Assembly: GCA_913775595.1 (NCBI GenBank)
Contig: CAJYLB010000001.1
Location: 310,001 to 374,000, forward strand
Length of the DNA: 64,000 nt
From: an uncultured Aquiluna sp.
Lineage (GTDB): Bacteria > Actinomycetota > Actinomycetes > Actinomycetales > Microbacteriaceae
Reading direction: 5' to 3'
Shown: piece after piece, positions 1-34,756 of the stretch
Position numbering within the stretch: the first letter of the stretch is position 1
How the letters are laid out: each line of letters opens with the position of its first letter
The notes under the pieces: model-generated
Told to the model about the DNA's origin: nothing
Databases searched by the model: none
Seen by the model: only the letters and a program-made list of their open reading frames with translations
Position numbers and translations under genes: made by a program

Positions 1-649
<649 letters not shown>

Positions 650-650
<1 letters not shown>

Positions 651-3121
651 TGAAGGTCCCACTCAGTTGGCTTGGTGAGTTCGTAGAGCTACCAAAGGAC
701 GCAACGCCTCACGCGGTAATGGAAGATCTTGTGCGAGTTGGACTCGAGGAAGAGTCCTCAATCGGCGGCGAAATCACCGGACCTGTCGTGGTTGGCAAGG
801 TCTTGGACTTTGTTGAGGAGCCGCAGTCCAATGGCAAGACCATCCGGTGGTGCCAAGTTCAGGTTGGCCCAGACGCAGGAGACGTTCGAGGCATAGTTTG
901 TGGCGCGAGAAACTTTGAAGTTGGCGACAAGGTTGTAGTCACCCTGCCAGGTGCAGTTCTGCCGGGCGGTTTTGAAATTGCTGCTCGAAAGACCTATGGC
1001 CACATCTCCGATGGAATGATTGCCTCTGCCAAGGAGCTCAGCCTCAGCGATGATCACGAGGGCATTCTGCGTCTTGTGACTCTGGGGCTAGATCCTGAGC
1101 TCGGCACCGATGCACTTGAGCTTCTAGGTTTGAGCGAGTCTGCGGCGGAGGTCAATGTCACCCCCGACAGGGGCTACTGCTTTTCCATCAGGGGGATTGC
1201 GAGGGAGTACTCACATGCGACCTCTCGAAAATTCACGGATCCTGCATCGCTGGTAAGTCCTGCGCAGGTCTCAGGCTTTGCTTTGAAAGTGGGGGATTCG
1301 GCTCCCATTCACGGAACAGCAGGATGCTCTAACTTTTTGCTAGTTGGCGTAGAGAACATAGATGCGACCTCTCCCACGCCGAGCTGGATGGCCACCAGGC
1401 TCAAGCTAGCCGGCATGAGGTCTATTTCAATTGCCGTGGACATCACCAACTACGTCATGCTGGAGCTTGGTCAGCCTCTTCACGCCTACGATCTGGACAA
1501 GCTCACCGGAGGCATTGAAGTAAGGCGAGCAAAAAAGGGCGAGAAGATAACCACCCTTGATGACAAAGAGCGTGAACTTCATGAGGAAGATCTTCTGATT
1601 ACGGACGAGAGCGGTCCGATTGGCATCGCTGGCGTGATGGGTGGAGCGAGCACCGAGGTTTCAGACAGCACCACTCGGATACTGCTAGAGGCCGCAATTT
1701 TTGATCCGATTTCCATTGCTCGCTCGGCTCGCCGGCACAAGCTGCCGTCCGAGGCCTCCCGGCGCTTTGAGCGCGGGGTCGACCACAAGGTTTCTGCTTA
1801 TGCCGCCGCCAGGGCAGCCCAGCTACTTATCGAGCATGCTGGAGGAAAGCTGTCGGGGCTCGGTGCCGAGTTCAAAACCGACATTTCCCCCGCGGTAATT
1901 TCAATGCTGGCTGGCTTCCCATCCGAGCTTGTCGGCTATAAATACTCGGAAAAAGAAGTTGTTGCTGCCCTTGAGATGATCGGCTGCAAAGTATCGTCAA
2001 AGGCGGGGGTCCTTGAGGTTGAGGCACCGTCATGGCGGCCAGATTTGCAGCACAAGACAGACCTTGCCGAAGAGGTTGCCAGGCTCGTTGGTTACGACAA
2101 GATTCCTGCCACGATTCCAGTAGCACCGCCTGGCCGAGGACTAACTCGAAACCAGCAGCTCCGTAGAAAAGTACTTGGTTCCCTTGTTGGGGCCGGCTTT
2201 GTCGAGGTTCTGAACTATCCGTTCTACTCGCCTGAGCAGAACTCCTGGTTCTCTCAATTGGATGCAGTTCGATTGGAGAATCCGATTCAGAGTGAGTCCG
2301 GAGAGCTGCGCAAAGAGTTGTTGCCCGGGCTACTGCAGGCTGCAGCCAGAAACCTATCCCGTGGAAGCACCAGTCTTGCTCTCGTTGAGGAGGGATCTGT
2401 CTTTTTGGCGGGTGGAAAGCCCGTTACCTCTTTGCCGGTAGGCAATGAGCGTCCAAGCGAAAAGGTGCTAAAAGAACTCGATGCAGCAATCCCCGCACAG
2501 CCAAGGAAGCTGGCGGGTGTGGTGCTCGGAGACTGGGTTCCCCAGCAGCCGGGCCGCAGTTCAATTCAGGCTGGTTACGAGCATGCAATCTCTGGTCTAA
2601 AGGCTGCCCTCGGGACAATCGCTGTGGAGGTAGAACTAGCCCAGGCCGAGGTTATGGGTCTTCACCCAGGCAGGGGAGCGAAGGTCATGGTTTCGGGCAA
2701 AGAGGTCGGCATAGTGGGTGAGATTCACCCAGACATTGCCGATGAACTTCACCTCTCTGGTCGTGTCGGCGCCTTCGAGGTTGACCTGAGCGCCGTTTTT
2801 GCACTTGCTCCAGAGTTAGTAACAGCTCAAGAGATTGGCGTAATGCCGGCTGCCACCCAGGACCTGTCCTTGGTGGTTGACCTGGATGTCTCGGCAGCAG
2901 AGCTCATGCAAACCATCAGGAGCGGTGCGGGCGAGCTGCTCGAGAAGATTTCACTCGTTGATGACTGGCGGTCAGAGAGCCTGGGCGATAAGAAGTCACT
3001 CACCTTCTCGCTGTTATTTAGGGCGCGGGACAAGACTCTCACTGCAGCAGAGGCGACGGCCGCAAAGGATGCCGCGGTTGCCATGGCAGCCAAGCAGCAT
3101 GGTGCGGAGCTGAGGGCATGA
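650..3121 (+). CDS. pheT: Phenylalanine--tRNA ligase beta subunit
   Basis: 823 aa, with [44 protein letters not shown] and [13 protein letters not shown]. Follows pheS. Confidence 0.97.
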
Positions 3122-4164
3122 CGATACAGGTTGCGGTGGCAGGTGCCAGCGGCTACGCAGGCGGAGAGCTGCTGAGGCTGATCTCGGCACATCCAATGCT
3201 TGATTTGGGAAACGTCACGGCATTTTCCAATGCCGGGGAAAAGCTAGGGAAGTTGCAGCCTCACCTTGGAGAGTTTGCGGACAGAGTGCTCATGGAGACC
3301 ACCGCTGAGAATCTCATGGGTCATGAGGTTGTCTTCCTTGCCCTGCCACATGGACAGAGCGCTGCAATTGCAAATCAGCTTCCAGAGCACATGTTGGTAA
3401 TTGATTGCGGTGCAGATTTCAGGCTTCACGACCCAGCGGCCTGGCGCGACTATTACGGTGGCGAGCACGCTGGAACCTGGCCCTACGGACTGCCAGAAAT
3501 GGTCACCGCCGATGGCGGAAAGCTTCGCGGCAGACTGCGCGAGCAGCGCAGGATTGCGGTTCCCGGTTGCAACGTAACAGCGGTGACTTTAGCCCTAGCT
3601 CCAGCCGCAACTAGTGACCTGATCGAGGTCGATGACATAGTGGCAACTCTGGCTGTTGGAACCTCGGGGGCAGGAAGGGCTGCGAAGCCAGATCTCCTGG
3701 CTACGGAGGTCATGGGCTCTGCCAGGGCTTACTCGGTTGGAGGTGTTCATCGTCACATTCCTGAGATGCTTCAGAACCTAGCTATTGCTTCGGGTAAGCG
3801 TGGGTCGATTTCTTTCACGCCGATTTTGATTCCGATGTCGAGGGGTATTTTTGCGTCGGTGGCCGCCAAGCCAGGGAGTCGCTTCTCAATGGAATACATC
3901 CGAGAGGTTTACCAGGACGCTTACTCGGACGAGGAATTCGTCAAGCTGCTGCCGGCGGGTGAGATTCCGCAGACCGGTGCGGTAGTCGGATCAAACATGG
4001 CGCACGTCGCCATTGAATTTGACGAAAAAGCCGGACGGGTGCTCTTCATGTGTGCAATTGACAATCTTGTGAAGGGAACAGCGGGAGCTGCAATCCAGAG
4101 CATGAACATCGCACTTGGCTTGACAGAGCAGACTGGTCTTTCGGCAGTTGGTGTTGCCCCTTGA
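3118..4164 (+). CDS. argC: N-acetyl-gamma-glutamyl-phosphate reductase
   Basis: [11 protein letters not shown]ossmann motif, catalytic region AVPGC, and [17 protein letters not shown]. Confidence 0.96.
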
Positions 4165-5312
4165 CCGTCAGCTTTCCTCAAGGCTTCAGCGCATCAGGTG
4201 TAGTTGCGGGTTTGAAGCCAAGTGGCAAAAAGGACATCGCTTTGGTCTTGAATGAGGGTCCGATCAGTTCCGCGGCCGCTGTTTTCACTTCGAACCGCTG
4301 CAAGGCCAATCCAATTCTCTGGTCCCAAGAGGTCATTAGGTCGGGAAGCGTTAGGGCCATCGCCCTGAATTCTGGTGGGGCAAACTGCTACACCGGACCT
4401 CAAGGTTTTCAGACCACGCACGCAACAGCAGAGAAGGTTGCCGAGTTGATTGGCTCGGGTGCAGCGGAGGTTTTGGTTTGTTCCACCGGTTTGATTGGGG
4501 AGCAGCTCAACCGCGAGAAGGTGCTAGCTGGCATGGAGCTGGCGTTTGAAAACCTCGATGTCAGTGGGGGCATGGACGCTGCCGAGGCGATCATGACCAC
4601 GGACACCGTTTCCAAGACAGCCATCCGTGAGGGCCAAGGTTACAGACTCGGCGGCATGGCCAAAGGTGCAGGGATGTTGGCACCGGCTCTTGCCACCATG
4701 CTCGTGGTTCTAACGACAGATGCAGAGCTCTCAGCCGCAGAGCTCGACGCTGCGCTCCGGGCAGCAACAGCACTGAGTTTCGACAGGCTGGATTCAGACG
4801 GAGCGATGTCCACCAACGATCAGGTAACCCTCATGGCATCTGGTGCCTCGGGGGTAAGACCGGAACTGGGTGAGTTCCAGGCTTTGTTGACGGACCTCTG
4901 TAAAGAATTGGCTCTGAAGTTGCTAGATGATGCGGAGGGCGCAAGCCACAACATCCACATCACGGTTTCTGAGGCCGCGAGTGAGGCGGATGCAGTTGAG
5001 GTCGGAAGGGCAGTTGCGAGAAATAACTTGTTTAAGACCGCAATCTTTGGAAATGATCCGAATTGGGGAAGAATTCTTGCGGCCATTGGAACCACGAAGG
5101 CTGCATTTGATCCCTATGGAATTGACGTTTCGATCAACTCAGTCTTGATTTCTTCAAATGGAATGCCAGCCAGGGACCGTTCGGAAGTGGATCTCAGTGG
5201 CAAAGAGGTAGTAATTGATATCAATCTCCACGCGGGAGATGCCAAGGCCACGGTTGTGACAAACGACCTTACGCACGCCTACGTCGAAGAGAACAGTGCA
5301 TACTCAAGCTAA
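4161..5312 (+). CDS. argJ: Bifunctional ornithine acetyltransferase/N-acetylglutamate synthase
   Basis: Autocleavage region [17 protein letters not shown], plus [14 protein letters not shown] and DPNWGRI. Confidence 0.96.
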
Positions 5313-6199
5313 TGAAGCCGCAGCAGTCAGATAACGCACTAGCCAAGATTAAGGCGGAGACCCTCATTGAGTCTCTTGACTGGCTGAAGGATTTTCACGG
5401 TCGGGTAGTCGTCATCAAATTTGGCGGCAATGCGATGGTCGACGAAGACCTTCAGCGGGCTTTTGCGCAAGACATGGCCTACCTGCGCTTTGTCGGAATC
5501 AAACCCGTTGTAGTTCACGGTGGAGGCCCGCAGATCACGGCAAAGCTTGCCGAGCTGGGAATTGAGAGCGAGTTTCGCGGAGGCCTCAGATACACCGACG
5601 AGAAGACTATTGAGGTGGTGCGGGACGTTTTGAGGAATCAGATTGGCGCCCAGCTCGCCTCCCTAATTGGAGCTAGCGGTGCAGTGGCAAAGGTGCTATC
5701 CGGCGAGGATGATGACCTTTTCCGAGCAGTCAAGGTGAAGGGTAAGGGCCCTGATGGCGAGGTAGACCTTGGGCTTGTTGGGGAAGTTAGAAGCGTTAAT
5801 CCCAGAAGCGTTGTTCAGGCGATCGAGCGGGGAGATGTCCCAGTGATTTCAACGGTTGCCCCAACTACCCAGGGTGAGCTACTGAATGTGAATGCGGATC
5901 TTGCCGCGGCTTCCCTTGCCGTCGCACTGGGAGCTGAGAAGCTCATGGTGCTGACCGACGTTGCTGGGCTCTACGCAGATTGGCCCAACCGCGACTCACT
6001 GGTCTCTGAGATAACCGCCAATGAGCTGCGGGAGCTGATGCCCGCCTTGGAGTCTGGCATGATTCCTAAGATGCAAGCCTGTCTGGATGCCGTGGATGGT
6101 GGTGTGCCCAAGGCGCACATTATTGATGGGCGCGAGCCTCACAGCATTCTGTTGGAAATCTTTACAGCATCAGGTGTTGGCACACAGGTGACGAGGTAG
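5312..6199 (+). CDS. argB: Acetylglutamate kinase
   Basis: [26 protein letters not shown] and GMIPK motifs. Confidence 0.96.
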
Positions 6200-6201
6200 A
6201 G

Positions 6202-7125
6202 ATGACTAGGCACTTTTTGAAAGATGATGACCTAACACCTGTAGAGCAGGCCGACATCATTGAACGGGCTATCAGGCTCAAAGCCGACAGGTTTTCAGAG
6301 CGCCCTTTTGCTGGGCCGCAGACCGTAGCGGTCATCTTTGACAAGACCTCAACTCGCACGCGCGTTTCCTTTGCGGTGGGGATCTCAGATCTCGGGGGAG
6401 TACCACTGATTTTGGACACTGGAGTATCGCAGCTGGGCAAGAAGGAATCGGTGGCTGACACTGCCAAGGTCCTGGAGCGCCAAGTCGCTCAGATTGTCTG
6501 GCGCACCTACGCCCAAAGCGGGCTTGAGGAGATGGCTGCAAACTCAAAGGTGCCAGTCATCAATGCACTGAGTGACTCCTGGCATCCTTGCCAGCTCCTT
6601 GCAGATTTGGTGACCATTCGAGAGCACTTCGGAAAGACGCAGGGCCTGAAGCTTGCCTATGTCGGTGACGCGGCGAACAACATGGCAAACAGTTACCTGG
6701 TGGCATGTGCGCTTGCTGGTATGAGCGTTTCTGTTGCGGCTCCAGAGGGGTATCTGCCAGATCAAGAGGTGGTCTCGCGGGCAAGAGAGATTGCAGCGTT
6801 GCAAGGCGGCACTATTGAGACAACAAGTGACCCAGGGCAGGCGGTCGAGGGTGCGAACGTCATTGCAACCGACACTTGGATATCAATGGGCATGGAAGAG
6901 GAGGCGGAAGAGCGCAAGCGCGACTTTGCCGGCTTCACCGTGGACCAGGCGCTTATGGATGCGGCGAGCAGCGATGCAGTTTTCCTGCATTGCCTGCCGG
7001 CATATCGGGGGTTCGAGGTGAGCGCCGAAGTTATTGACGGACCTCGTTCAATGGTTTGGCAAGAGGCCGAGAATCGACTCCACGCCCAAAAGGCCCTAAT
7101 GGCCTGGCTTGCCGAGCAAAACTAG
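6202..7125 (+). CDS. argF: Ornithine carbamoyltransferase
   Basis: STRT carbamoyl-phosphate motif, HPCQ, HCLP and QEAENRLH. Confidence 0.96.
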   Translation: MTRHFLKDDDLTPVEQADIIERAIRLKADRFSERPFAGPQTVAVIFDKTSTRTRVSFAVGISDLGGVPLILDTGVSQLGKKESVADTAKVLERQVAQIVWRTYAQSGLEEMAANSKVPVINALSDSWHPCQLLADLVTIREHFGKTQGLKLAYVGDAANNMANSYLVACALAGMSVSVAAPEGYLPDQEVVSRAREIAALQGGTIETTSDPGQAVEGANVIATDTWISMGMEEEAEERKRDFAGFTVDQALMDAASSDAVFLHCLPAYRGFEVSAEVIDGPRSMVWQEAENRLHAQKALMAWLAEQN

Positions 7126-7151
7126 ACTTAGACAAACTCGGGTTAGGAACA

Positions 7152-8552
7152 ATGGCACAAAGTAGCGATGCCCTATGGGGCGGCAGGTTCGAAGGAACCA
7201 CCGCAGACGCCATGGCCGCCCTGAGTAAGTCAACACAATTCGACTGGCGCCTTGCCAAATACGACCTCAGGGGCACTTCAGCCCATGTCAAGGCACTCAA
7301 TGCCGCGGGCTATCTCAATGATGACGAGCTCGGGGTGATTGAAAAGGCGATCAGGGAGCTCACCAAGAGGGTCGAGGCGGGAAGCTTCAAGCCCCGGCCA
7401 GAGGAAGAAGATGTTCACGCGGCCCTAGAGCGCGGCCTGATTGAGATAGCAGGTAGTGAGGTGGGCGGCAAGATACGCACCGGGCGCAGCCGCAATGACC
7501 AGATCGCAACCCTCATTCGCATGTTCATGTCAGATGCCGCAGATGCCATCGAGGAGCAGATTCTCAGTTACATCGAGGCACTTAGCGGCAAGGCAGAGGA
7601 GTACATGGGCGCAGCTATGGCTGGGAGGACTCATTTCCAGCACGCGCAGCCCGTTTTGCTTTCACACCACCTTGCAGCACACGCCTGGCCACAAGTTAGG
7701 AACCTGCAGCGGCTAGAGGACTTCAGGAAGCGACTAAACAAGTCCCCCTATGGCTCTGCCGCACTCGCTGGCAACACGCTGAACCTTGATGCAGCGGCTA
7801 TCGCGGAAGAGCTTGGGTTCGGTGGCACCACGGAAAACTCTATGGATGCGACTTCTGCCCGCGATCTTGTGGCTGAGTTTGCCTTCATCCTCTCGTTGGT
7901 TGCAATTGACCTATCTAGGCTCAGCGAAGAGGTCATCGCCTGGGCAACTGCGGAGTTCGGATACATCCAGCTGGATGATGCTTTTGCCACAGGCTCATCG
8001 ATAATGCCGCAGAAAAAGAACCCCGACATCGCAGAGCTCGCAAGAGGCAAGACCGGCAGAATCATCGGGAACCTGACTGGCCTTCTTGCAACTCTCAAGG
8101 CACTTCCGCTGTCATACAACCGCGACTTGCAGGAGGACAAGGAGCCACTCTTCGATTCCTTCGACCAGCTAATGCTCGTGATGCCGGCGATGACCGGAAT
8201 GATCGCAACAATGACCTTTAACCGTGGTCGTCTGGAAGACATGGCATCAGCTGGCTTCTCACTGGCAACAGACATCGCAGAGTGGTTAGTTCGCCAGGGA
8301 GTTACTTTTAGAGAAGCCCATGAAATCTCTGGGCAGCTGGTTAGATTCTGCGAGGAGAACGGGCTCGATCTTCAAGAACCGACTGACGAGCAGTACCTGG
8401 AAATCTCAAAGCACCTCAAGCCAGAGGTTCGAAAGGTTCTGAGCGTATCGAGCGCAATCGAGGGGCGAAGCGGAGCTGGCGGCACATCGTCGAAGCAGGT
8501 CATTGAGCAGCTGGTTCAGCTTCGCAAGCTCGTCGGGAAGGCAAAGAAGTAA
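7152..8552 (+). CDS. argH: Argininosuccinate lyase
   Basis: LWGGRF, GRSRNDQ, GSSIMPQKKNPD and YNRDLQEDK. Start re-called at ATG 7152 (after AGGA) because the ORF-track start overlaps argF. Confidence 0.96.
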   Translation: MAQSSDALWGGRFEGTTADAMAALSKSTQFDWRLAKYDLRGTSAHVKALNAAGYLNDDELGVIEKAIRELTKRVEAGSFKPRPEEEDVHAALERGLIEIAGSEVGGKIRTGRSRNDQIATLIRMFMSDAADAIEEQILSYIEALSGKAEEYMGAAMAGRTHFQHAQPVLLSHHLAAHAWPQVRNLQRLEDFRKRLNKSPYGSAALAGNTLNLDAAAIAEELGFGGTTENSMDATSARDLVAEFAFILSLVAIDLSRLSEEVIAWATAEFGYIQLDDAFATGSSIMPQKKNPDIAELARGKTGRIIGNLTGLLATLKALPLSYNRDLQEDKEPLFDSFDQLMLVMPAMTGMIATMTFNRGRLEDMASAGFSLATDIAEWLVRQGVTFREAHEISGQLVRFCEENGLDLQEPTDEQYLEISKHLKPEVRKVLSVSSAIEGRSGAGGTSSKQVIEQLVQLRKLVGKAKK

Positions 8553-9850
8553 TGGCCACCAAGGAAACACTTGCCGCACAGTCCAACGACAGTACTTTTG
8601 GCCACATTCTCGACGAGCTGCAGTGGCGAGGGCTTGTAGCACTCTCCACTGACGAAAAAGAACTCCGTAATGCACTCGATAGGCCCATGACCTTCTACTG
8701 CGGTTTTGACCCCACGGCTCCCAGTCTCCACTTGGGAAACCTGGTTCAGCTACTGACAATGCGAAGACTTCAGCTGGCAGGTCACAACCCGCTTGCATTG
8801 GTAGGTGGCGCTACCGGGTTAGTCGGCGACCCAAAGCCAAACTCAGAGCGAACCCTCAATGACCGTGAAACTGTTGCTCAGTGGGTGGAGAAGCTTGCCG
8901 AGCAAAACCGCAGATTCCTGAGTTTTGAAGGCAAGAACAAAGCCCAAATGGTCAACAATCTCGATTGGACCAGCGAATACAGTGCAATCGACTTCCTGAG
9001 AGAAATCGGCAAGCACTACCGGGTCGGGAAGATGATCTCCAAGGATGCGGTCTCGGCAAGGCTCAATTCAGAGGCTGGAATTAGCTACACAGAGTTTTCT
9101 TACCAAATCATGCAGGGGCTTGACTTCCTGGAGCTCTACCGCCGCTATGGCTGCACCATGCAAACAGGAGGTAGTGATCAGTGGGGCAACCTAACCTCGG
9201 GCACAGATCTCATTCACAGGGTCGAGGGCAAGAGTGTGCACCTAATCGCCACTCCTTTGATCACTAACGCGGATGGCAAGAAGTTCGGTAAGAGCGAGGG
9301 GAATGCCATTTGGCTGGACAGCGAACTAACTAGTCCCTATGCGATGTATCAGTTCTGGCTCAATACCGATGATGCCGATGTAATCGACCGCCTCAAGGTT
9401 TTTACCTTTCTGAGCCGCGCTGAAATTGCCGAATACCAAAAGCAGGTCGCGAGTGAACCTTTCAAGCGCGAGGCTCAGCGAAAGCTTGCTCTCGAGGTTA
9501 CTGAGATTGTGCATTCCAAACAGGAGGCCGAGAGTGCCCGGGATGCATCCCTCGCTCTTTTTGGAGGCGGTGACCTATCAGCTCTAGACGAGAAGACTCT
9601 TCGATCGGCGCTCGCCGAACTTCCGACAGCGGAGCTCAAAAAGGGTGCCTCGATAGTTGAGGCGCTCGTTGCAACCGGACTGGCCGAGTCCAACTCTGCT
9701 GCTAGAAGGGCTATTGAGCAGGGTGCGGTGAGTGTGAACAAGGATAAGATTTCGAGCGAGGACGATGAGCTGGGGCAACTTGGCGGCATGCCGCTTGCCG
9801 TGATTTCAAAGGGAAAGAAGAACCTTGCGGGCATCTTTTTTTCCCGCTGA
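8552..9850 (+). CDS. tyrS: Tyrosine--tRNA ligase
   Basis: YCGFDPTAPSLHLGN (HIGH), GGSDQWGN, KFGKS (KMSKS) and a C-terminal S4-like domain. Confidence 0.97.
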   Translation: MATKETLAAQSNDSTFGHILDELQWRGLVALSTDEKELRNALDRPMTFYCGFDPTAPSLHLGNLVQLLTMRRLQLAGHNPLALVGGATGLVGDPKPNSERTLNDRETVAQWVEKLAEQNRRFLSFEGKNKAQMVNNLDWTSEYSAIDFLREIGKHYRVGKMISKDAVSARLNSEAGISYTEFSYQIMQGLDFLELYRRYGCTMQTGGSDQWGNLTSGTDLIHRVEGKSVHLIATPLITNADGKKFGKSEGNAIWLDSELTSPYAMYQFWLNTDDADVIDRLKVFTFLSRAEIAEYQKQVASEPFKREAQRKLALEVTEIVHSKQEAESARDASLALFGGGDLSALDEKTLRSALAELPTAELKKGASIVEALVATGLAESNSAARRAIEQGAVSVNKDKISSEDDELGQLGGMPLAVISKGKKNLAGIFFSR

Positions 9851-22626: not shown

Positions 22627-23526
22627 GTGATGACGCCGCTTGAGCGCTACCTGCGGCACCTCACGGTTGAGCGCGGACTTTCCAAAAACACTCTCGCTGC
22701 ATACCGAACGGACCTGAATAAGTACGCGGCGTATCTAGAATCGGTTGGGGTAGAAGCGATTAGTGCCACGGCATCAAATCTTGAGGCTTTCGCTAATCAA
22801 CTCACCGATGCAAAGCTCAAGGCATCCAGCCGGGCAAGGATTCTTGCCGCGGTCCGAGGTTTTCACAAGTTTCTCGCTCTCGAGGGCCTCAGGGATGATG
22901 ATCCAACGTCCAGGTTTCGCCCTCCAAAGCTCCCTAGCAGGCTTCCAAAGGCGCTTTCTCAGGAACAGGTAGTCAGGCTCCTAGAGGCTGCCGGCCCTGA
23001 GCCCGATGATGAGGCAGCAGATCGAATCAGACTGCGAGATAGAGCAATTGTCGAGCTGATGTATTCGACTGGTGCCAGGGTTAGTGAGGTCGTTTCATTA
23101 GACCTCGATGAGGTGACCGATGACGGTCTGATCAGAGTCAGGGGCAAAGGATCTAAGGAGCGGATTGTTCCGGTCGGGTCTTTCGCGGCCAAAAGTCTGG
23201 ATGCGTATCTCGTGAGAACCAGGCCCGAGCTGGCACTGCTTCGAGGCGACAGAGCAGTCTTTTTGAATAAGCAGGGCGGGAGGCTTTCGAGACAGAGTAT
23301 CTGGGACATTATCCAGAGAGCGGGGGTTGCAGCAGGGGTTAAAGTTTCTCCGCATACCCTCAGGCATTCTTTTGCAACGCACCTAATCGAGGGTGGTGCA
23401 GATGTCAGGGTGGTGCAGGAGCTTTTAGGCCACGCATCAGTTGCAACCACCCAGATTTACACCTTGATAACTGTTGACACGCTGCGCGAGGTGTATGCGC
23501 AAGCTCATCCCCGCGCTCGGCGGTAG
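22627..23526 (+). CDS. xerD: Tyrosine recombinase XerD
   Basis: VERGLSKNTLAAY, TGARVSE, GKGSKER, HTLRHSFATH and LGHASVATTQIYT. Conserved position between pyrG and parA-scpAB. Confidence 0.93.
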   Translation: MMTPLERYLRHLTVERGLSKNTLAAYRTDLNKYAAYLESVGVEAISATASNLEAFANQLTDAKLKASSRARILAAVRGFHKFLALEGLRDDDPTSRFRPPKLPSRLPKALSQEQVVRLLEAAGPEPDDEAADRIRLRDRAIVELMYSTGARVSEVVSLDLDEVTDDGLIRVRGKGSKERIVPVGSFAAKSLDAYLVRTRPELALLRGDRAVFLNKQGGRLSRQSIWDIIQRAGVAAGVKVSPHTLRHSFATHLIEGGADVRVVQELLGHASVATTQIYTLITVDTLREVYAQAHPRARR

Positions 23527-29943: not shown

Positions 29944-30797
29944 TTGCCAACCTCATTCGCGGACTGCTTATTGGAACAGCTGAAGTAATTCCAGGGGTAT
30001 CCGGTGGCACCATCGCCCTGATTGTTGGCATCTACGAGCGCGTCATCGGCTCAGCTGCAATTGCTGTGGATGCCGCCCTCCTTGTTCTCAGAGGCAGATT
30101 CAAAGACTCAAAGGATCTCTGGAAAGGTATCGACTGGGGTCTGATTTTGCCGGTTCTTGCCGGAATGTTTGCCGCGATTTTTGCAGCGGCATCGATAATC
30201 GAACCGCTGTTGGAAAGTCAGCCTGAAAATATGCGGGCGTTGTTCGCCGGATTGATCCTGGTGTCATTGGTGGTTCCTTACAAAATGGTTGGCAGTGCCT
30301 GGGTTGCCAAAGATTTTCTGATTGGCACTGCTGCTGCGGCAGTCGCCTTTGGCCTTGTTAGCTTGCCAAGGCAAGAAGTGATGAATCCGAATTTAGTTCT
30401 TGTATTTCTGGTTGCTTCCGTCGCGGTCTGCGCTCTAGTTCTGCCCGGGGTATCCGGCTCATTTCTATTGCTGGCGATGGGTTTCTATGCCCCGACAATT
30501 GCTGCGGTGAACGATCTCGACCTTGCTTACCTTGGAATGTTTGTTGCAGGTGCAGTTATTGGTCTTGCAGTCTTCGCCAAAGTCCTCAGAAGGCTGCTAG
30601 TCAATCGGCGCAGGGTGACACTTGTCGTCATGACCGGTTTGATGTTTGGGTCGCTCAGAGCTCTTTGGCCTTGGCAGGATGAGTCGGGGAGAGCTCTGGA
30701 GGCAGCTAGCTTTGAACCGCTGGGCTATTTTCTTCTGGGAGCAGTAATAGTTGCGGTGCTCACGTGGGTTCAATCAAGGGCCACAAAAGCCCAATAG
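29940..30797 (+). CDS. DUF368 family membrane protein (putative undecaprenyl-phosphate translocase)
   Basis: Two PGVSG(G/S) repeats ([21 protein letters not shown]), multiple TM helices and GSLRALWPW. Confidence 0.88.
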
Positions 30798-30812
30798 ACT
30801 TACCTTCTGAAG

Positions 30813-30886
30813 CGGGCTGTGGCGCAGCTTGGTAGCGCACTTGTCTGGGGGACAAGGGGTCGTGGGTTCAAATCCCGCCAGCCCGA
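30813..30886 (+). tRNA. tRNA-Pro(GGG)
   Basis: Acceptor stem CGGGCTG/CAGCCCG, D-arm GCGCAGCTTGGTAGCGC, anticodon arm CTTGT-CTGGGGG-ACAAG and T-loop GGTTCAAATCC. CCA is not encoded. Confidence 0.97.
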
Positions 30887-30969
30887 CTCTAACCACTTAC
30901 CAACTGAGAGTTTCATGGGAATCGCCCCCCCTCCTTAGGGGCCGAAGAGCGCCGAATTAGGGTTGGGTG

Positions 30970-32448
30970 ATGCGCAAAGCCCTCACGATCTCGGGAATTC
31001 TCGTCACAGTCGGTCTAGTAGCAGTCGTTACAACGAACTCGCTTCCTTCACTCGTTGATCAAAGTGCAGGAGATCGTGCGGTGTTGGCGATACCACCGCT
31101 TGCGGAATCTCAAGTGGTTGAGGGCATCAGGGTTTTCGATCTTTCACTTCAGACCGGCGAGACAGAGATCTTGAAAGGCACGACCACTCCCACTTGGGGT
31201 GTCAACGCAAGTTATCTGGCGCCAACGATTCGTGCCGCCGAGGGTGAGACCGTTCAGATCAATGTTTCAAATCGGCTGCCTGAGGACACAACCATGCACT
31301 GGCATGGCTTGCATGTCCCTGCCATGATGGACGGCGGCCCGCATCAGCCAATCCTCATTGGAGAGACCTGGTCGCCTTCCTGGCTAGTAGACCAGGAAGC
31401 CTCAACAAATTGGTACCATCCCCATCTTCACGGTCGATCCGAGGCGCATGTGAAAAACGGGCTTGTTGGCATGTTCATCGTCGACGACGCTTCAGAGGCT
31501 CAATCTGAGCTTCCCAAAGCCTACGGGTTGGATGATATCCCTCTCATCATTCATGATTCTCCAGAGGAACTCTCAACCCAAGGTCCTATTGGGGCCTTTT
31601 TTGATCGCATCTTCGGTAACCGAGAGGGCGACGCTCTAACGCTTGTCAACGGCATTCCTGAGCCGGAGTTCACTGTGAAAACTGAGTTGGTTCGTTTCCG
31701 GCTGCTCAATGGCTCGATCGGCGATGTCTTCACTCTGTCTTTTTCTGATAATCGTGAATTTTCAATCATTGCATCCGAGGGCGGACTATTTGGAGCACCC
31801 ATAAAGGCTAAAGAGATTCAGATGTCTCCTGGAGAGAGATACGAGATTGTCGTGGAGTTCAAGCCCGGTGGCAATGTTGCACTGTTGAAATCGATTGTTG
31901 ATGAGGGTAACGATGATGCCCCTGCGACTTCCCTCCTGCACCTAAGCACAGAGTCAGCTTTGCAGCCGTCAAAGGGTTTGCCAGTGGAATTCGCAGCGCT
32001 GCCGCCAGTGGACCTCGACTCAGTTTCAAGGGTAAGAACCTTTGAGATGTCGGGGGTCGAAATAAATGGCTTGATGATGAACATGGATCGCATAGACCAG
32101 GTAGTTCATGCAGGCTCCAGTGAAATTTGGTCAGTGACAAACATTGACCGTTTTGAGTTTCATAATTTCCATGTGCACGGAGTCTCATTTCGGATTCTCG
32201 AGATTGACGGCGAGCAGCCAGCTGACTATTTGGCTTCTGCCAAGGACACAGTTTTTATTCCTCCAAACACAGAGGTGAAGCTATTCGTCACATTCCCAGA
32301 CAGTGCGAGCGACGGTTGGCCGTTCATGTTCCATTGCCATTTTTTGCGTCACGAAGGAAGAGGGATGATGGGGCAGTATCTTGTGGTCGAGGCGAACCAG
32401 AGCCTGGATCCAGAGGACCATAAGATTGCGTCGGGAATGTCACACTGA
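30970..32448 (+). CDS. Multicopper oxidase (CueO/laccase-like), N-terminal signal or anchor
   Basis: All four Cu-binding motifs are present: HWHG, WYHPH, HNFHVHG and HCHFLRHE..GMM. Hydrophobic N-terminus. TAGGGT -10 lies 6 nt before ATG 30970 (track start is GTG 30967). Confidence 0.93.
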   Translation: MRKALTISGILVTVGLVAVVTTNSLPSLVDQSAGDRAVLAIPPLAESQVVEGIRVFDLSLQTGETEILKGTTTPTWGVNASYLAPTIRAAEGETVQINVSNRLPEDTTMHWHGLHVPAMMDGGPHQPILIGETWSPSWLVDQEASTNWYHPHLHGRSEAHVKNGLVGMFIVDDASEAQSELPKAYGLDDIPLIIHDSPEELSTQGPIGAFFDRIFGNREGDALTLVNGIPEPEFTVKTELVRFRLLNGSIGDVFTLSFSDNREFSIIASEGGLFGAPIKAKEIQMSPGERYEIVVEFKPGGNVALLKSIVDEGNDDAPATSLLHLSTESALQPSKGLPVEFAALPPVDLDSVSRVRTFEMSGVEINGLMMNMDRIDQVVHAGSSEIWSVTNIDRFEFHNFHVHGVSFRILEIDGEQPADYLASAKDTVFIPPNTEVKLFVTFPDSASDGWPFMFHCHFLRHEGRGMMGQYLVVEANQSLDPEDHKIASGMSH

Positions 32449-32466
32449 TCAATCCCGGAAACGACA

Positions 32467-32638
32467 TGTTCCCCCAGATGTTCCCCCACCTGAGCACATT
32501 TCGCTGATGTTCGCCTGTGTTCTTGAGTGTTCGCACCCTGAAAAACACTGGAAAAATGAACACCAGCGAACAGCTACGAACAACCTGCACTTAACTGGGG
32601 GACAAGGGGTCGTGGGTTCAAATCCCGCCAGCCCGACT
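32467..32638 (+). repeat. att-like module copy 1 (128-bp arm + 44-bp tRNA-Pro 3' half)
   Basis: TGTTCCCCCAG-A-TGTTCCCCCAC, 3x TGTTC(G/T) and 3x (C/T)GAACA at 10-bp period, then CTGGGGGACAAGGGGTCGTGGGTTCAAATCCCGCCAGCCCGACT, identical to 30845-30888. Confidence 0.95.
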
Positions 32639-32650
32639 CGAGCCGCCCTT

Positions 32651-32953
32651 CTATTTGTTGTTTTCCCTTGCCCTAACGAGCCACCTACCAAATAGAGCTG
32701 TTGTCGAGGTAACGATCAACCAGAAAGGTACTCCCGGGAGACCTGTTCTAAGCACAAACATGACATTCAGGCTGATGTAAAGCAACCCTGCAATTACTCC
32801 CAAGGGGAACCTCACAGAGAGAGAAACTTTTCGGCTGAAACCAACCGCCGCAAGCACAATTACGCTGGCCGCAATTCTCTCGTATTCGATTAGGCCTAGT
32901 GCTAGGTGAAGAACTAGGTCAACGAGTTGTATGGCAATTATGTAAGGGATCAC
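32651..32953 (-). CDS. Small hypothetical membrane protein (100 aa, 3-4 TM), cargo of cassette 2
   Basis: Hydrophobic ORF that fills the space between the two att modules. TAGGGT -10 lies 6 nt upstream of the GTG. Confidence 0.7.
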   Translation of the reverse strand: MIPYIIAIQLVDLVLHLALGLIEYERIAASVIVLAAVGFSRKVSLSVRFPLGVIAGLLYISLNVMFVLRTGLPGVPFWLIVTSTTALFGRWLVRARENNK

Positions 32954-33008
32954 TGCTTCACCCTAACACCCGGTCTCGAGACAAGCTGCTCGCTGAAGTG
33001 GTCGTTAG

Positions 33009-33179
33009 TGTTCCCCCAGATGTTCCCCCACCTGAGTACTTTTCGCTGATGTTCGCCTGTGTTCGTGAGTGTTCGCACCCTTGAAAACACTGGAAAAACG
33101 AACACCAGCGAACAGCTACGAACAACCTGCACTTAACTGGGGGAAAGGGGTCGTGGGTTCAAATCCCGCCAGCCCGACT
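33009..33179 (+). repeat. att-like module copy 2 (128-bp arm + 43-bp tRNA-Pro 3' half)
   Basis: The arm differs from copy 1 at 6 of 128 positions (hand count). The tRNA part has a 1-bp deletion (GGGGGAAAGGGG). Confidence 0.95.
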
Positions 33180-33180
33180 T

Positions 33181-33831
33181 CTAGTCGCCAGATGTTCCGT
33201 AAAGCCTGTCTCCCGCATCTCCCAGACCAGGGACAATGTAGCCGATCTCGTTGAGCTTCTCGTCGAGTGCGGCTAAATGAACGCTTACGTTTTTTTGCGG
33301 CCAGCTCTGAATTACGTGTTTGGTCACTGCTTCAACGCCTTCAGGTGCACCGAGTAGACAAATGCATGTTGCACTCTCTGCTCCGCGCTCAAAGGCATAG
33401 TCCAGGGAATCGTTGAGCGTGCCGCCAGTTGCGAGCATTGGATCAATCAAAATCACTTGGCGACCGGTTAGATCATCCGGAAGACGGTTCGCGTAAGTTT
33501 CCGGCTGCAAAGTCTCTTCGTTGCGCTTAATACCTAGGAATCCAACTTCGGCATCGGGCAAGAGCTTGGTGATACCCGATAGCATGCCAAGCCCTGCCCT
33601 GAGTATGGGAATAATCAAAGGAGCTGGGCTGGCCAGTCTGACCCCATTTGTCAGTGTAAGTGGGGTCTCAACCTCCACCTCCTCAGTGGCAAGAGTCTTT
33701 GTCGCCTCGAAGGTGAGAAGGGTTACAAGTTCTTCGACTAACTGCCTAAATTGACTACTAGACGTGTTTTTGTCCCTGAGTAGGGTGACTTTGTGGGAAA
33801 TCAGCGGATGGTCGGCAACGAATAATTCCAT
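33181..33831 (-). CDS. upp: Uracil phosphoribosyltransferase
   Basis: PILRAGLGM, DPMLATGGT and GYIVPGLGDAGDR. Confidence 0.97.
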   Translation of the reverse strand: MELFVADHPLISHKVTLLRDKNTSSSQFRQLVEELVTLLTFEATKTLATEEVEVETPLTLTNGVRLASPAPLIIPILRAGLGMLSGITKLLPDAEVGFLGIKRNEETLQPETYANRLPDDLTGRQVILIDPMLATGGTLNDSLDYAFERGAESATCICLLGAPEGVEAVTKHVIQSWPQKNVSVHLAALDEKLNEIGYIVPGLGDAGDRLYGTSGD

Positions 33832-33870
33832 TTCCTAACTGTATCCCGCACTTGAAGTAATATCTCTCCT

Positions 33871-33922
33871 GTCACCAGGATCGGAGCCCCGCGGGTGATA
33901 ACCAAGCGGAAGGCTCAATTCG
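33871..33922 (+). promoter_or_regulatory. Candidate pseudoknot riboswitch-like 5' UTR of metF
   Basis: TAATAT -10 at 33858. P1 is GTCACC/GGTGAT. P2 is GAGCC-CCGC/GCGG-AA-GGCTC and covers the RBS. Confidence 0.45.
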
Positions 33923-34756
33923 ATGCAAATCTCCTTCGAGGTATATCCACCGAGAAAAGTGGAGGATACCCCCAAGCTGCACGAGGCGATTCTGCGCCTG
34001 TCAGAGCTAAGCCCAGAGTTCATTTCGGTCACGTTTGGTGCAGGTGGCTCCAGCACACGTGACTCCTTGAGTGTCCTGAAATTCATTCGAGATAACTCGG
34101 GAGCTTCACCCCTCGCTCACCTAACTTGCGTCGGAACCACAGAACAGGACGCGCGGTCTTTGGTGGGGGAGTTTTTGGCCGAGGGCATTCATGACTTTTT
34201 AGCGCTCAGGGGAGATCTACCCGAAGGTCAGACTTCGATGCCTCCAGGCAGGCTGTCAAGAGCGGATCAACTCGTGAGCCTCATTGAAGAGTTGCGACCT
34301 GGACAGCTAGGCAAGACAGCGGTGGCTGCTTTCCCCAATGGACACCCAGAGTCAGGCCAGGAAAGAACAGACATTGATGCTCTGCTTGCCAAGCAGGAGG
34401 CTGGAGCCGACTTCGCCATCACGCAGCTCTTTTTCTTTGCTCAGGACTATCTTCGGTTCGTTGATCTCGCGCGGGCAAAGGGAGTTGAGATTGACCTCAT
34501 CCCGGGCATCATGCCAATCGTCTCGCCGACGAGACTCTCAAGAGTTTTAGAGCTATCGGGAGAGAGTGAGCCAAAGGCCCTGGCCGAGGATCTTCGCAGC
34601 GCACCGGACGCTGAAGCTCGTCGTAGAGCCGGTATTGAATGGGCCGCGAATCAGGTGAGGGATCTCAGGGACGCTGGTGTTGAGTCTGTGCACCTCTACG
34701 CATTCAATGAATATGCAAACGTGACTGAGGTGCTGAGAAGAGCTGGAGTCGCCTAA
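33923..34756 (+). CDS. metF: Methylenetetrahydrofolate reductase
   Basis: SFEVYPP, FISVTFGAGGS, AHLTCV, LALRGD, AITQLFF and IPGIMPI. Confidence 0.94.
   Translation: MQISFEVYPPRKVEDTPKLHEAILRLSELSPEFISVTFGAGGSSTRDSLSVLKFIRDNSGASPLAHLTCVGTTEQDARSLVGEFLAEGIHDFLALRGDLPEGQTSMPPGRLSRADQLVSLIEELRPGQLGKTAVAAFPNGHPESGQERTDIDALLAKQEAGADFAITQLFFFAQDYLRFVDLARAKGVEIDLIPGIMPIVSPTRLSRVLELSGESEPKALAEDLRSAPDAEARRRAGIEWAANQVRDLRDAGVESVHLYAFNEYANVTEVLRRAGVA

Follow-up and report, generated by a model that had tools for sequence, protein, structure and literature searches.

An additive island at tRNA-Pro(GGG) of Aquiluna, probably built of reduced Giles-type integrative elements

How does a bacterial chromosome come to carry, beside one intact tRNA gene, a stack of short units that each end in a copy of that gene's 3' half, each hold a single gene and contain no visible integrase? 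The question is raised by a stretch of 64,000 nucleotides (the window) from an uncultured Aquiluna sp. of the Microbacteriaceae (assembly GCA_913775595.1, contig CAJYLB010000001.1, positions 310,001 to 374,000), where a preliminary description had proposed minimal cassettes stacked at tRNA-Pro(GGG) in the manner of an integron. The genome that carries the window, G000, is a single contig of 1.245 Mb; in what follows G-numbers stand for genomes, L-numbers for the loci or stretches compared and X-numbers for sequencing runs. We regard the region as probably an additive flexible genomic island at tRNA-Pro(GGG), built of reduced integrative elements whose integrase is of the type found in mycobacteriophage Giles. 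The architecture of the attachment (att) site, the family of the cognate integrase, the variability of the arrays, the block-wise gain or loss of units, their sharing across species and one case of reduction are established.

Repeats, arms and cargo at the tRNA-Pro(GGG) gene

The intact tRNA-Pro(GGG) gene lies at 30813-30887 on the plus strand (ARAGORN; Rfam tRNA, 62.1 bits). According to ARAGORN it is the sole tRNA of the window, and it is the only proline tRNA of G000 with a GGG anticodon; it constitutes the attB/attL side of the array. Its 3' half, from the anticodon loop onward, occurs three times on the plus strand, twice as an exact 44-nt sequence and a third time one base short, as had been described. 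Core copy 1 (30845-30888) belongs to the intact gene, beginning at the anticodon loop and running 1-2 nt past the 3' end, core copy 2 (32595-32638) is identical to the tRNA 3' half at 44 of 44 positions, and core copy 3 (33137-33179), which carries a 1-nt deletion, would be the displaced original 3' half. Both extra cores are preceded by a 128-nt arm (32467-32594 and 33009-33136, plus strand), with differences between the two copies at 6 of 128 positions and repeat spacings of 1750 nt and 541-542 nt; arm, differences and spacings all agree with the preliminary description. In the whole G000 genome the arm occurs at these two places only, with the remaining blastn matches being 12-16 nt long or falling in other tRNAs.

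Unit 1 (30889-32638, plus strand, 1750 nt) consists of a 78-nt leader, a multicopper oxidase gene, an 18-nt spacer, arm copy 1 and core copy 2. Its only open reading frame (ORF; 30967-32448, plus strand) encodes a multicopper oxidase of 493 aa whose N-terminus is hydrophobic and whose three domains match Pfam Cu-oxidase_3, Cu-oxidase and Cu-oxidase_2. Unit 2 (32639-33179, plus strand, 541 nt) comprises a small ORF on the minus strand, arm copy 2 and core copy 3; this ORF (32651-32953), again the only one of its unit, encodes a 100-aa hydrophobic protein with no Pfam or PHROG family. A tblastn search of 30700-33400 with six recombinases and one Xis-like protein gave nothing better than E 0.3, and the earlier statement that no integrase fragment is visible thus holds. 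The claim that each of the two genes has its own -10 element was not confirmed: a sigma-70 promoter scan of 30500-34000 returned one site, on the minus strand inside the oxidase gene, against 1.9 expected from shuffled sequence.

Each arm is an ordered set of short boxes. A pair of 10-nt boxes spaced 12 nt apart (32466-32475 and 32478-32487 in arm copy 1) is followed by three direct boxes (32508-32534), a spacer and three inverted copies of the direct box (32557-32582); the direct and the inverted boxes each repeat at 10-nt spacing and the inverted set stops 12 nt short of the core. The corresponding box groups of arm copy 2 lie at 33008-33029, 33050-33076 and 33099-33124. In an alignment of six arm copies from three genomes with two intact tRNA regions, homology between the six copies begins abruptly at the first box pair, and nothing is conserved past the core. 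Across 96 distinct arm-plus-core copies from genomes and metagenomes, the boxes are the best-conserved columns, the spacers vary and the upstream flanks are unconserved. As DNA, the arm strand folds somewhat better than shuffled sequence (z -2.56), with the conserved inverted boxes forming the pairing. The arm is the P-side attachment arm of a family of integrative elements.

Could such a layout reflect instead a local tandem duplication, an artefact of assembly, or a regulatory or RNA element of the host? Repeats do break short-read assemblies, and many contigs of relatives stop in the arm or the core. The tRNA-oxidase, oxidase-arm, core-small ORF and core-upp junctions are, however, covered by unitigs of three independent metagenome runs, and an assembly artefact is unlikely for that reason. 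A duplication is countered by the cargo between the copies, which is unrelated. An RNA element might be suggested by a weak tmRNA-like match over 33045-33180, which at 13.7 bits lies far below the Rfam gathering score of 47; Rfam reported the tRNA as the sole family above threshold on the locus, and the arm both terminates integrase-bearing elements and mirrors the attP of Giles, as set out below. We consider this whole group of explanations highly improbable.

The same metagenome runs bear on two further properties of the locus. The 1-nt deletion of core copy 3, which had been taken as a sign that the distal copy is older, is polymorphic between runs (it is not present in the X5 and X6 contigs) and says little on age. 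Mean word depth of the oxidase unitig was 10.7-11.9 in X4-X6, compared with about 28-140 for the flank unitigs and 56-100 for the small unit, and the oxidase unit may therefore be a minority variant, although this is a hint only, summed contig depth not being equal to the share of cells. Contigs of RNA library X14 match three stretches of the oxidase gene with 0 differences; such libraries can contain DNA.

Multicopper oxidase homologues were found in 4 of 62 genomes of the genus and in none of the other 58; two of them, 59-60% identical, lie away from a tRNA-Pro array (G304:C1:823544-825010 and G413:C30:3523-4986). Units of L130 and L151 carry 133-aa relatives of the small hydrophobic protein. 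In this subclade the array borders on the chromosomal gene upp, encoding uracil phosphoribosyltransferase (33181-33831, minus strand; Pfam UPRTase), which adjoins the tRNA-Pro locus only where upp is at least 80% identical and otherwise lies far away. In the window upp is followed by metF (33181-34756 for the two), and the genes after the array are lineage-specific, with G304 showing a cupin-like ORF (by eye) and then a 532-aa ABC-type ATPase ORF, and G011 and G186 having metF as the first gene past the tRNA. An Xer-type recombinase gene (window 22951-23463; G000:C1:332951-333463) is located about 7.4 kb upstream of tRNA-Pro and keeps its position in further genomes and loci of the genus (e.g., G304, L023, L104 and L024); no link between this gene and the array was found.

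Arrays and integrase-bearing elements in relatives

Matches to the arm among 401 genomes of the family were confined to the window's genus. When a 172-nt query of arm plus core was compared with 62 genomes of the genus, 51 matched, mostly in the tRNA part alone, and 16 of the matches reached into the arm. A metagenome scan with the arm-core junction yielded 101 stretches. Two duplicate loci and two without a core were dropped, and 89 loci were oriented, 28 of which include the intact tRNA; since the metagenome search pattern was the arm-core junction itself, this sample is biased to arm-bearing units.

The 89 loci hold 71 complete core-to-core units with a median length of 1783 nt (range 541-9188), every one of them terminated by the 44-nt core. 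A single ORF of at least 90 aa was present in 49 of the 71 units, on the tRNA strand in 40 cases, and the remaining 22 contain several; the rule of one gene per unit that had been proposed thus applies to both units of the window but not throughout the genus. Arrays with both ends in view (15) contain 0 to 3 units, and in some genomes the tRNA is followed directly by metF-like, pgsA-like, FHA or MerR genes or by one large ORF. The units contain 115 cargo ORFs of at least 90 aa, representing 58 families. Pfam analysis of 63 cargo proteins (the 58 family representatives and 5 further members) revealed oxidases, transporters, acyl- and acetyltransferases and a beta-lactamase-fold protein; restriction-modification genes, a sugar-utilisation operon and repeat-rich surface proteins were also among the cargo, and many cargo genes belong to no family. 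Integrase, recombinase, transposase, phage and conjugation domains were found in none of the 63. The features by which additive islands are recognized are therefore present: the same tRNA-side position is used across strains and species (28 of the 89 loci and several genomes of the genus), the units are core-ended and vary in number and content, and near-identical cassettes occur in diverged genomes. As had been predicted, relatives differ in how many units, and which, stand between tRNA-Pro and the genes downstream.

Some loci depart from this arrangement. L083, from G409, has full-length tRNA-Pro(GGG) genes at 870-944 and 4249-4322, the second 89% identical, flanking a 1039-aa ORF; this is a duplication of the whole tRNA, not a repeat of its 3' half, and the arm is absent. 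In three metagenome contigs the array lies about 1.1 kb from tRNA-Val(GAC) or about 1.8 kb after tRNA-Arg(ACG) (L128:1765-1840, L163:1465-1540 and L141:11-84), unlike the neighbourhood in G000. In L047, a contig of IMCC13023, the flank past the third core (after 11975) opens with a run of 5-nt tandem repeats.

An integrase-bearing element with the same arm, which the preliminary description had predicted, was found in L150, L153 and G416. In a phmmer comparison of five tyrosine recombinases with 909 frames of at least 100 aa from the oriented loci, three loci matched the Xer gene, situated about 7 kb upstream of the tRNA, and a non-Xer integrase was present in two only, L150 and L153. There it lies upstream of the arm and core and is 90% identical to the integrase of G416 (83-85% in DNA). 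The order in L150 is a replication-initiator-like fragment, an HTH_17 Xis-like gene, the integrase, six co-oriented cargo genes, the arm and the core. G416 carries, after the intact tRNA-Pro, a 13-kb island with a type I restriction-modification system, a NucS-like gene, the integrase and an Mrr-like gene, and an arm-type box pair at +25, right after the tRNA. Because G416 thus repeats the box pair of the arm after the tRNA, the complete elements have paired boxes on both sides of the core (attL in G416, attR in L150 and L153). A close homologue of this integrase occurs in 1 of the 62 genus genomes, the rest having matches of at most 30% identity, and the elements of this kind that end in the arm accordingly come from 1 of 62 genomes and 2 metagenome contigs.

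The tyrosine recombinases of G000 itself are limited to two Xer-like genes and the integrase of an island at tRNA-Thr. The latter integrase was considered as a resident helper and rejected as not cognate, being 26% identical to the arm-associated integrase and accompanied by different boxes. The island in question (G000:C1:832397-840492, outside the window) spans 8 kb at tRNA-Thr(TGT), with a 379-aa integrase beside the intact tRNA, a tRNA-Thr fragment at the distal end, secreted-protein cargo and a distinct repeated box near both ends.

Among phages, the arm-associated integrase is closest to those of Giles-type mycobacteriophages, at about 35% identity over 93% of the protein; the L150 protein is 35% identical to the Gilesvirus gp29 Y-integrase over 390 residues (E 3e-68). 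The same phages match the core part of the 172-nt query, and that part only, over 44 nt (query positions 128-171); the match falls in the interval that separates gene 28 from the annotated integrase gene, at about 105 nt from the latter (KJ538722.1). In their attP, 12-nt direct repeats stand in pairs on either side of the core, one pair about 100 nt upstream and an identical one about 40 nt downstream, and three phased repeats immediately precede the core. Giles presumably integrates into a tRNA-Pro gene. The annotation of KJ538722.1 gives an integrase and a recombination directionality factor (RDF). In both Giles and Aquiluna the core corresponds to the 3' half of tRNA-Pro beginning at the anticodon loop, paired 12-nt boxes flank the core on both sides with three phased repeats just upstream (a layout shared by the Aquiluna arms and the attL of G416), and an RDF/Xis gene lies near the integrase. 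The differences are that the box sequences do not match those of the Aquiluna arm, that the phage integrase gene abuts the core on the P' side whereas the Aquiluna integrase is internal and co-oriented with the tRNA, and that the sampled Aquiluna elements lack phage structural genes. The homologous integrase is thus a property of the elements of relatives, with none in the window, and of the boxes that flank the core on both sides in Giles the window has those of the P side only. That the repeats are attachment-site scars of tyrosine-integrase elements, as first proposed, is supported by these comparisons.

Viral contigs gave 0 matches to two arm patterns and no relative of the integrase, searched singly and as an alignment. 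The sampled integrase-bearing Aquiluna elements contain no phage structural genes and the sampled parent elements no conjugation genes. An exact 21-mer (21-26 nt) of the Aquiluna paired boxes was seen in about 20 Burkholderiales-type stretches. In L030:9813-10070, L018 and L021 it stands in reverse orientation between tRNA-His(GTG), at a distance of about 110 nt, and a DUF4102/P4-type integrase gene that follows closely. That integrase was discarded as a relative, showing no specific similarity to the Aquiluna integrase, and the box match may be due to chance, convergence or a shared host factor.

Stacking, reduction and transfer of units

The explanation that we favour is that a Giles-related tyrosine integrase would recombine within the 44-nt core, between the anticodon loop and the tRNA 3' end, such that integration would restore the tRNA from the element's own core copy and leave at the far end of the element the P arm, with its 128 nt of protein-binding boxes, and the displaced tRNA 3' half. 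Each later element would insert at the intact tRNA, so that older units come to lie farther away from it. The units of the window would be reduced members: each retains one cargo gene, a complete P arm and a core, but has neither the integrase/Xis/replication module nor the P' box pair, whether through loss or because it never had them. With these missing and no cognate integrase in G000, the units would not be autonomous.

Entry beside the intact tRNA, already suggested in the preliminary description, is supported by the comparison of G000 with G440. In G440 the intact tRNA is followed by the small unit, 97.1% identical to unit 2 of the window over 456 nt to the contig end, while the flanks of the two genomes are 77.0% (9.6 kb upstream) and 79.0% (7.3 kb downstream) identical; the arrangement in G000 is that of G440 plus one extra unit, the oxidase unit, adjacent to the tRNA. 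A second unit, K2 (351-aa ORF), is 92-98% identical where the 900-nt upstream flanks are 82-84% identical, and it opens one array but takes second place after three different units in others, with four different neighbours upstream and five downstream. Likewise, the unit that opens the array of L036 lies behind the integrase island in G416. Taken together, these data fit entry at the tRNA combined with the gain, loss and horizontal sharing of whole units, and the contrast between unit and flank identity shows that the small unit and K2 move between species as blocks. The oxidase unit shows no transfer signal, because in G420 (1668-nt contig) it is 89.9% identical at the nucleotide level where the flanks are 94.3% identical.

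Reduction is documented in one case. In L097, 1407 nt of a 1649-nt single-gene unit match the distal 1.4 kb of the G416 island at 99.5% identity. The similarity starts where the Mrr-like gene ends and not at an att site, and the unit's own leader contains a box pair; judged from this alignment, the unit is demonstrably a deletion derivative of an integrase-bearing island, presumably that of G416 or a close relative. This pair, the 13-kb island and its remnant, is the single instance of the larger islands with deletion remnants that the preliminary description had set against its own reading. Beside the L097 unit lies an 'empty' unit made up of a decayed core, 24 nt, a complete arm and a core, which would be the expected leftover of recombination between the left and right box pairs. 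The two units of the window would also have originated by reduction, but this is an extrapolation, because L097 is the one documented case.

Box pairs on the P' side are scarce. A clean pair of C5 runs 12 nt apart was present in 13 of 125 distinct post-core flanks, nearly all at +27 to +30 (background, 71 of 6988 70-nt windows), and a single box with at most 2 mismatches at +24 to +37 in 25 of 126 (background, 257 of 5425 90-nt windows). A pair is missing from both post-core flanks of the window; a C-rich stretch at about +31 in the oxidase leader resembles a single box but is not assignable.

Several observations weigh against reduced elements as the whole explanation. Random deletion alone does not explain complete P arms alongside such rare P' pairs (13 of 125), even if this asymmetry is partly a sampling bias of the arm-core junction used as the search pattern. 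No integrase-bearing element was seen to contain the oxidase unit or the small unit. The boxes are putative binding sites for the integrase and Xis, to judge from their layout. Lastly, the boundaries of the small unit and of K2 are identical across species, which fits better with movement of units that were already reduced; some transfer mechanism for integrase-less units must therefore exist.

Two such mechanisms have to be weighed, namely an integrase acting in trans and RecA-type recombination across the conserved core and arm repeats of 44-172 nt, and reduced units may travel by either. One proposal is that the scars are inert, with no site-specific step after the original integrations, and that units are exchanged only by homologous recombination of the host after DNA uptake, across the tRNA/core (44-75 nt) and the arm plus core (172 nt). 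Conserved core and arm do offer usable homology in genomes that are otherwise 72-79% identical, almost none of the genomes with arrays has the cognate integrase, P' boxes are absent from most units, and the empty unit, a probable box-to-box deletion, points to repeat-mediated recombination at such arrays. On the other hand, inert scars leave the conservation of boxes relative to spacers unexplained unless all copies are young, and 44 nt of homology on the tRNA side is short for recombination. We hold this proposal to be possible but unlikely.

The other proposal is closer to the preliminary description: gene-plus-att cassettes would excise as circles between cores and be inserted at the tRNA by the trans-acting integrase of rare autonomous elements, as in an integron. 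Complete units without an integrase far outnumber integrase-bearing elements (71 vs 3), the population contains the cognate integrase, and the same unit has identical boundaries across species and array positions. The boxes are kept in the 96 distinct copies, arms are 88-98% identical where flanks are 72-79%, 40 of the 49 single ORFs are co-oriented, and the folding of the arm strand (z -2.56) also points in this direction. Set against this, the P' pair is confined to the 13 of 125 flanks, which include neither window unit, whereas the full elements and the Giles attP have both sides; where it is missing, a canonical attL or attP therefore cannot form. The L097 unit, moreover, is a deletion product, and deletion also leaves co-orientation, the cargo between integrase and arm in L150 being all co-oriented. 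The stacking of units thus stood up, and the claim that they are minimal cassettes mobilised in trans was weakened by the missing left-arm boxes and by the deletion origin of L097; reduced units with identical boundaries across species keep it a possible route. We think it rather doubtful that the array is such an integron-like system. The strongest form of the idea is an Aquiluna tRNA-anchored cassette system in which hundreds of integrase-less single-gene units with a 172-nt site are moved in trans by a Giles-type 'master' integrase through the P arm only. This, too, we consider improbable; if it were true, trans mobilisation by a master element would be the mechanism behind the additive islands of streamlined plankton bacteria.

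Junctions expected of moving cassettes were not encountered. Circles, tandem joints and empty sites, including the empty tRNA-upp site that had been predicted, were absent from the assembled Logan contigs, where rare junctions would not show; no contig had a terminal overlap, and no unit was followed by its own start, the adjacent units of L125 that start alike being 76.7% identical. Candidate joints of a tRNA end followed by an arm had sides of 24-37 letters, too short, and were discarded. Homologous recombination across core and arm is as simple a route as mobilisation in trans, and the data favour neither of the two.

Relation to known systems and significance

Additive flexible genomic islands at tRNA genes are described for Alteromonas (PMC4898812), 'Ca. 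Actinomarinales' (PMC7771536) and 'Ca. Methylopumilus' (PMC10872708). The Aquiluna locus resembles these islands in its tRNA-side hotspot, in cassettes that vary in number and kind between strains and are nearly identical across species, and in its streamlined planktonic host. It differs in that its units keep a 128-nt arm of phased boxes and have a named cognate integrase family, whereas the published descriptions, in the portions available, give no arm architecture, and the available text on the Alteromonas islands does not use the word 'integrase' (PMC4898812). The literature covered, which was incomplete, contained no description of the Aquiluna tRNA-Pro locus; PMC10872708 lists the genus. 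This kind of island is thus known; what is added is a resolved att architecture and a named integrase family.

Prochlorococcus tycheposons show successive tRNA integrations, degenerate elements and partial tRNAs in islands (10.1101/2020.12.28.424599). In architecture, the Aquiluna elements share with tycheposons a tyrosine recombinase, the small integration and replication modules with cargo, the tRNA sites and a streamlined plankton host, as well as successive integrations that push older elements inward and leave degenerate elements and extra partial tRNAs. They differ in that most Aquiluna units consist of a single gene and an intact right arm without mobility genes, while most Prochlorococcus island DNA, as the same source states, lies outside recognisable elements (10.1101/2020.12.28.424599).

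Two further classes of element offer a comparison. Cis-mobilizable elements (CIMEs) derive from integrative and conjugative elements by loss of the integrase and transfer modules, and like the Aquiluna units they are att-flanked, integrase-less derivatives that stand in tandem with, or are left by, integrase-bearing relatives (accretion). The Aquiluna parents, however, have no visible conjugation module, and most units lack left-arm sites while the right att is complete. Integrons have a resident IntI-type integrase, an attI site and a common promoter, and their attC sites are recombined as a folded single strand. Stacked, mostly single-gene and mostly co-oriented cassettes, each ending in a recombination site and with the newest at the anchor, are common to both systems, but the Aquiluna array has no resident IntI-type integrase, attI or common promoter, and its site, the layout of which matches a double-stranded arm plus tRNA core of the lambda/Giles type, is probably not an attC hairpin.

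For the organism, the island amounts to a gain of one multicopper oxidase and one small membrane protein. Much of what distinguishes the gene content of one strain of a streamlined aquatic bacterium from another resides in islands of this kind at tRNA genes, and the accounts cited, in the portions available, give cassettes and tRNA repeats without a defined recombination machinery. The Aquiluna locus supplies testable parts, namely the core, the phased-box arm, an integrase family with a characterised phage relative, and full, reduced and empty units, and it thereby makes testable whether integrase-less units still move and by which route.

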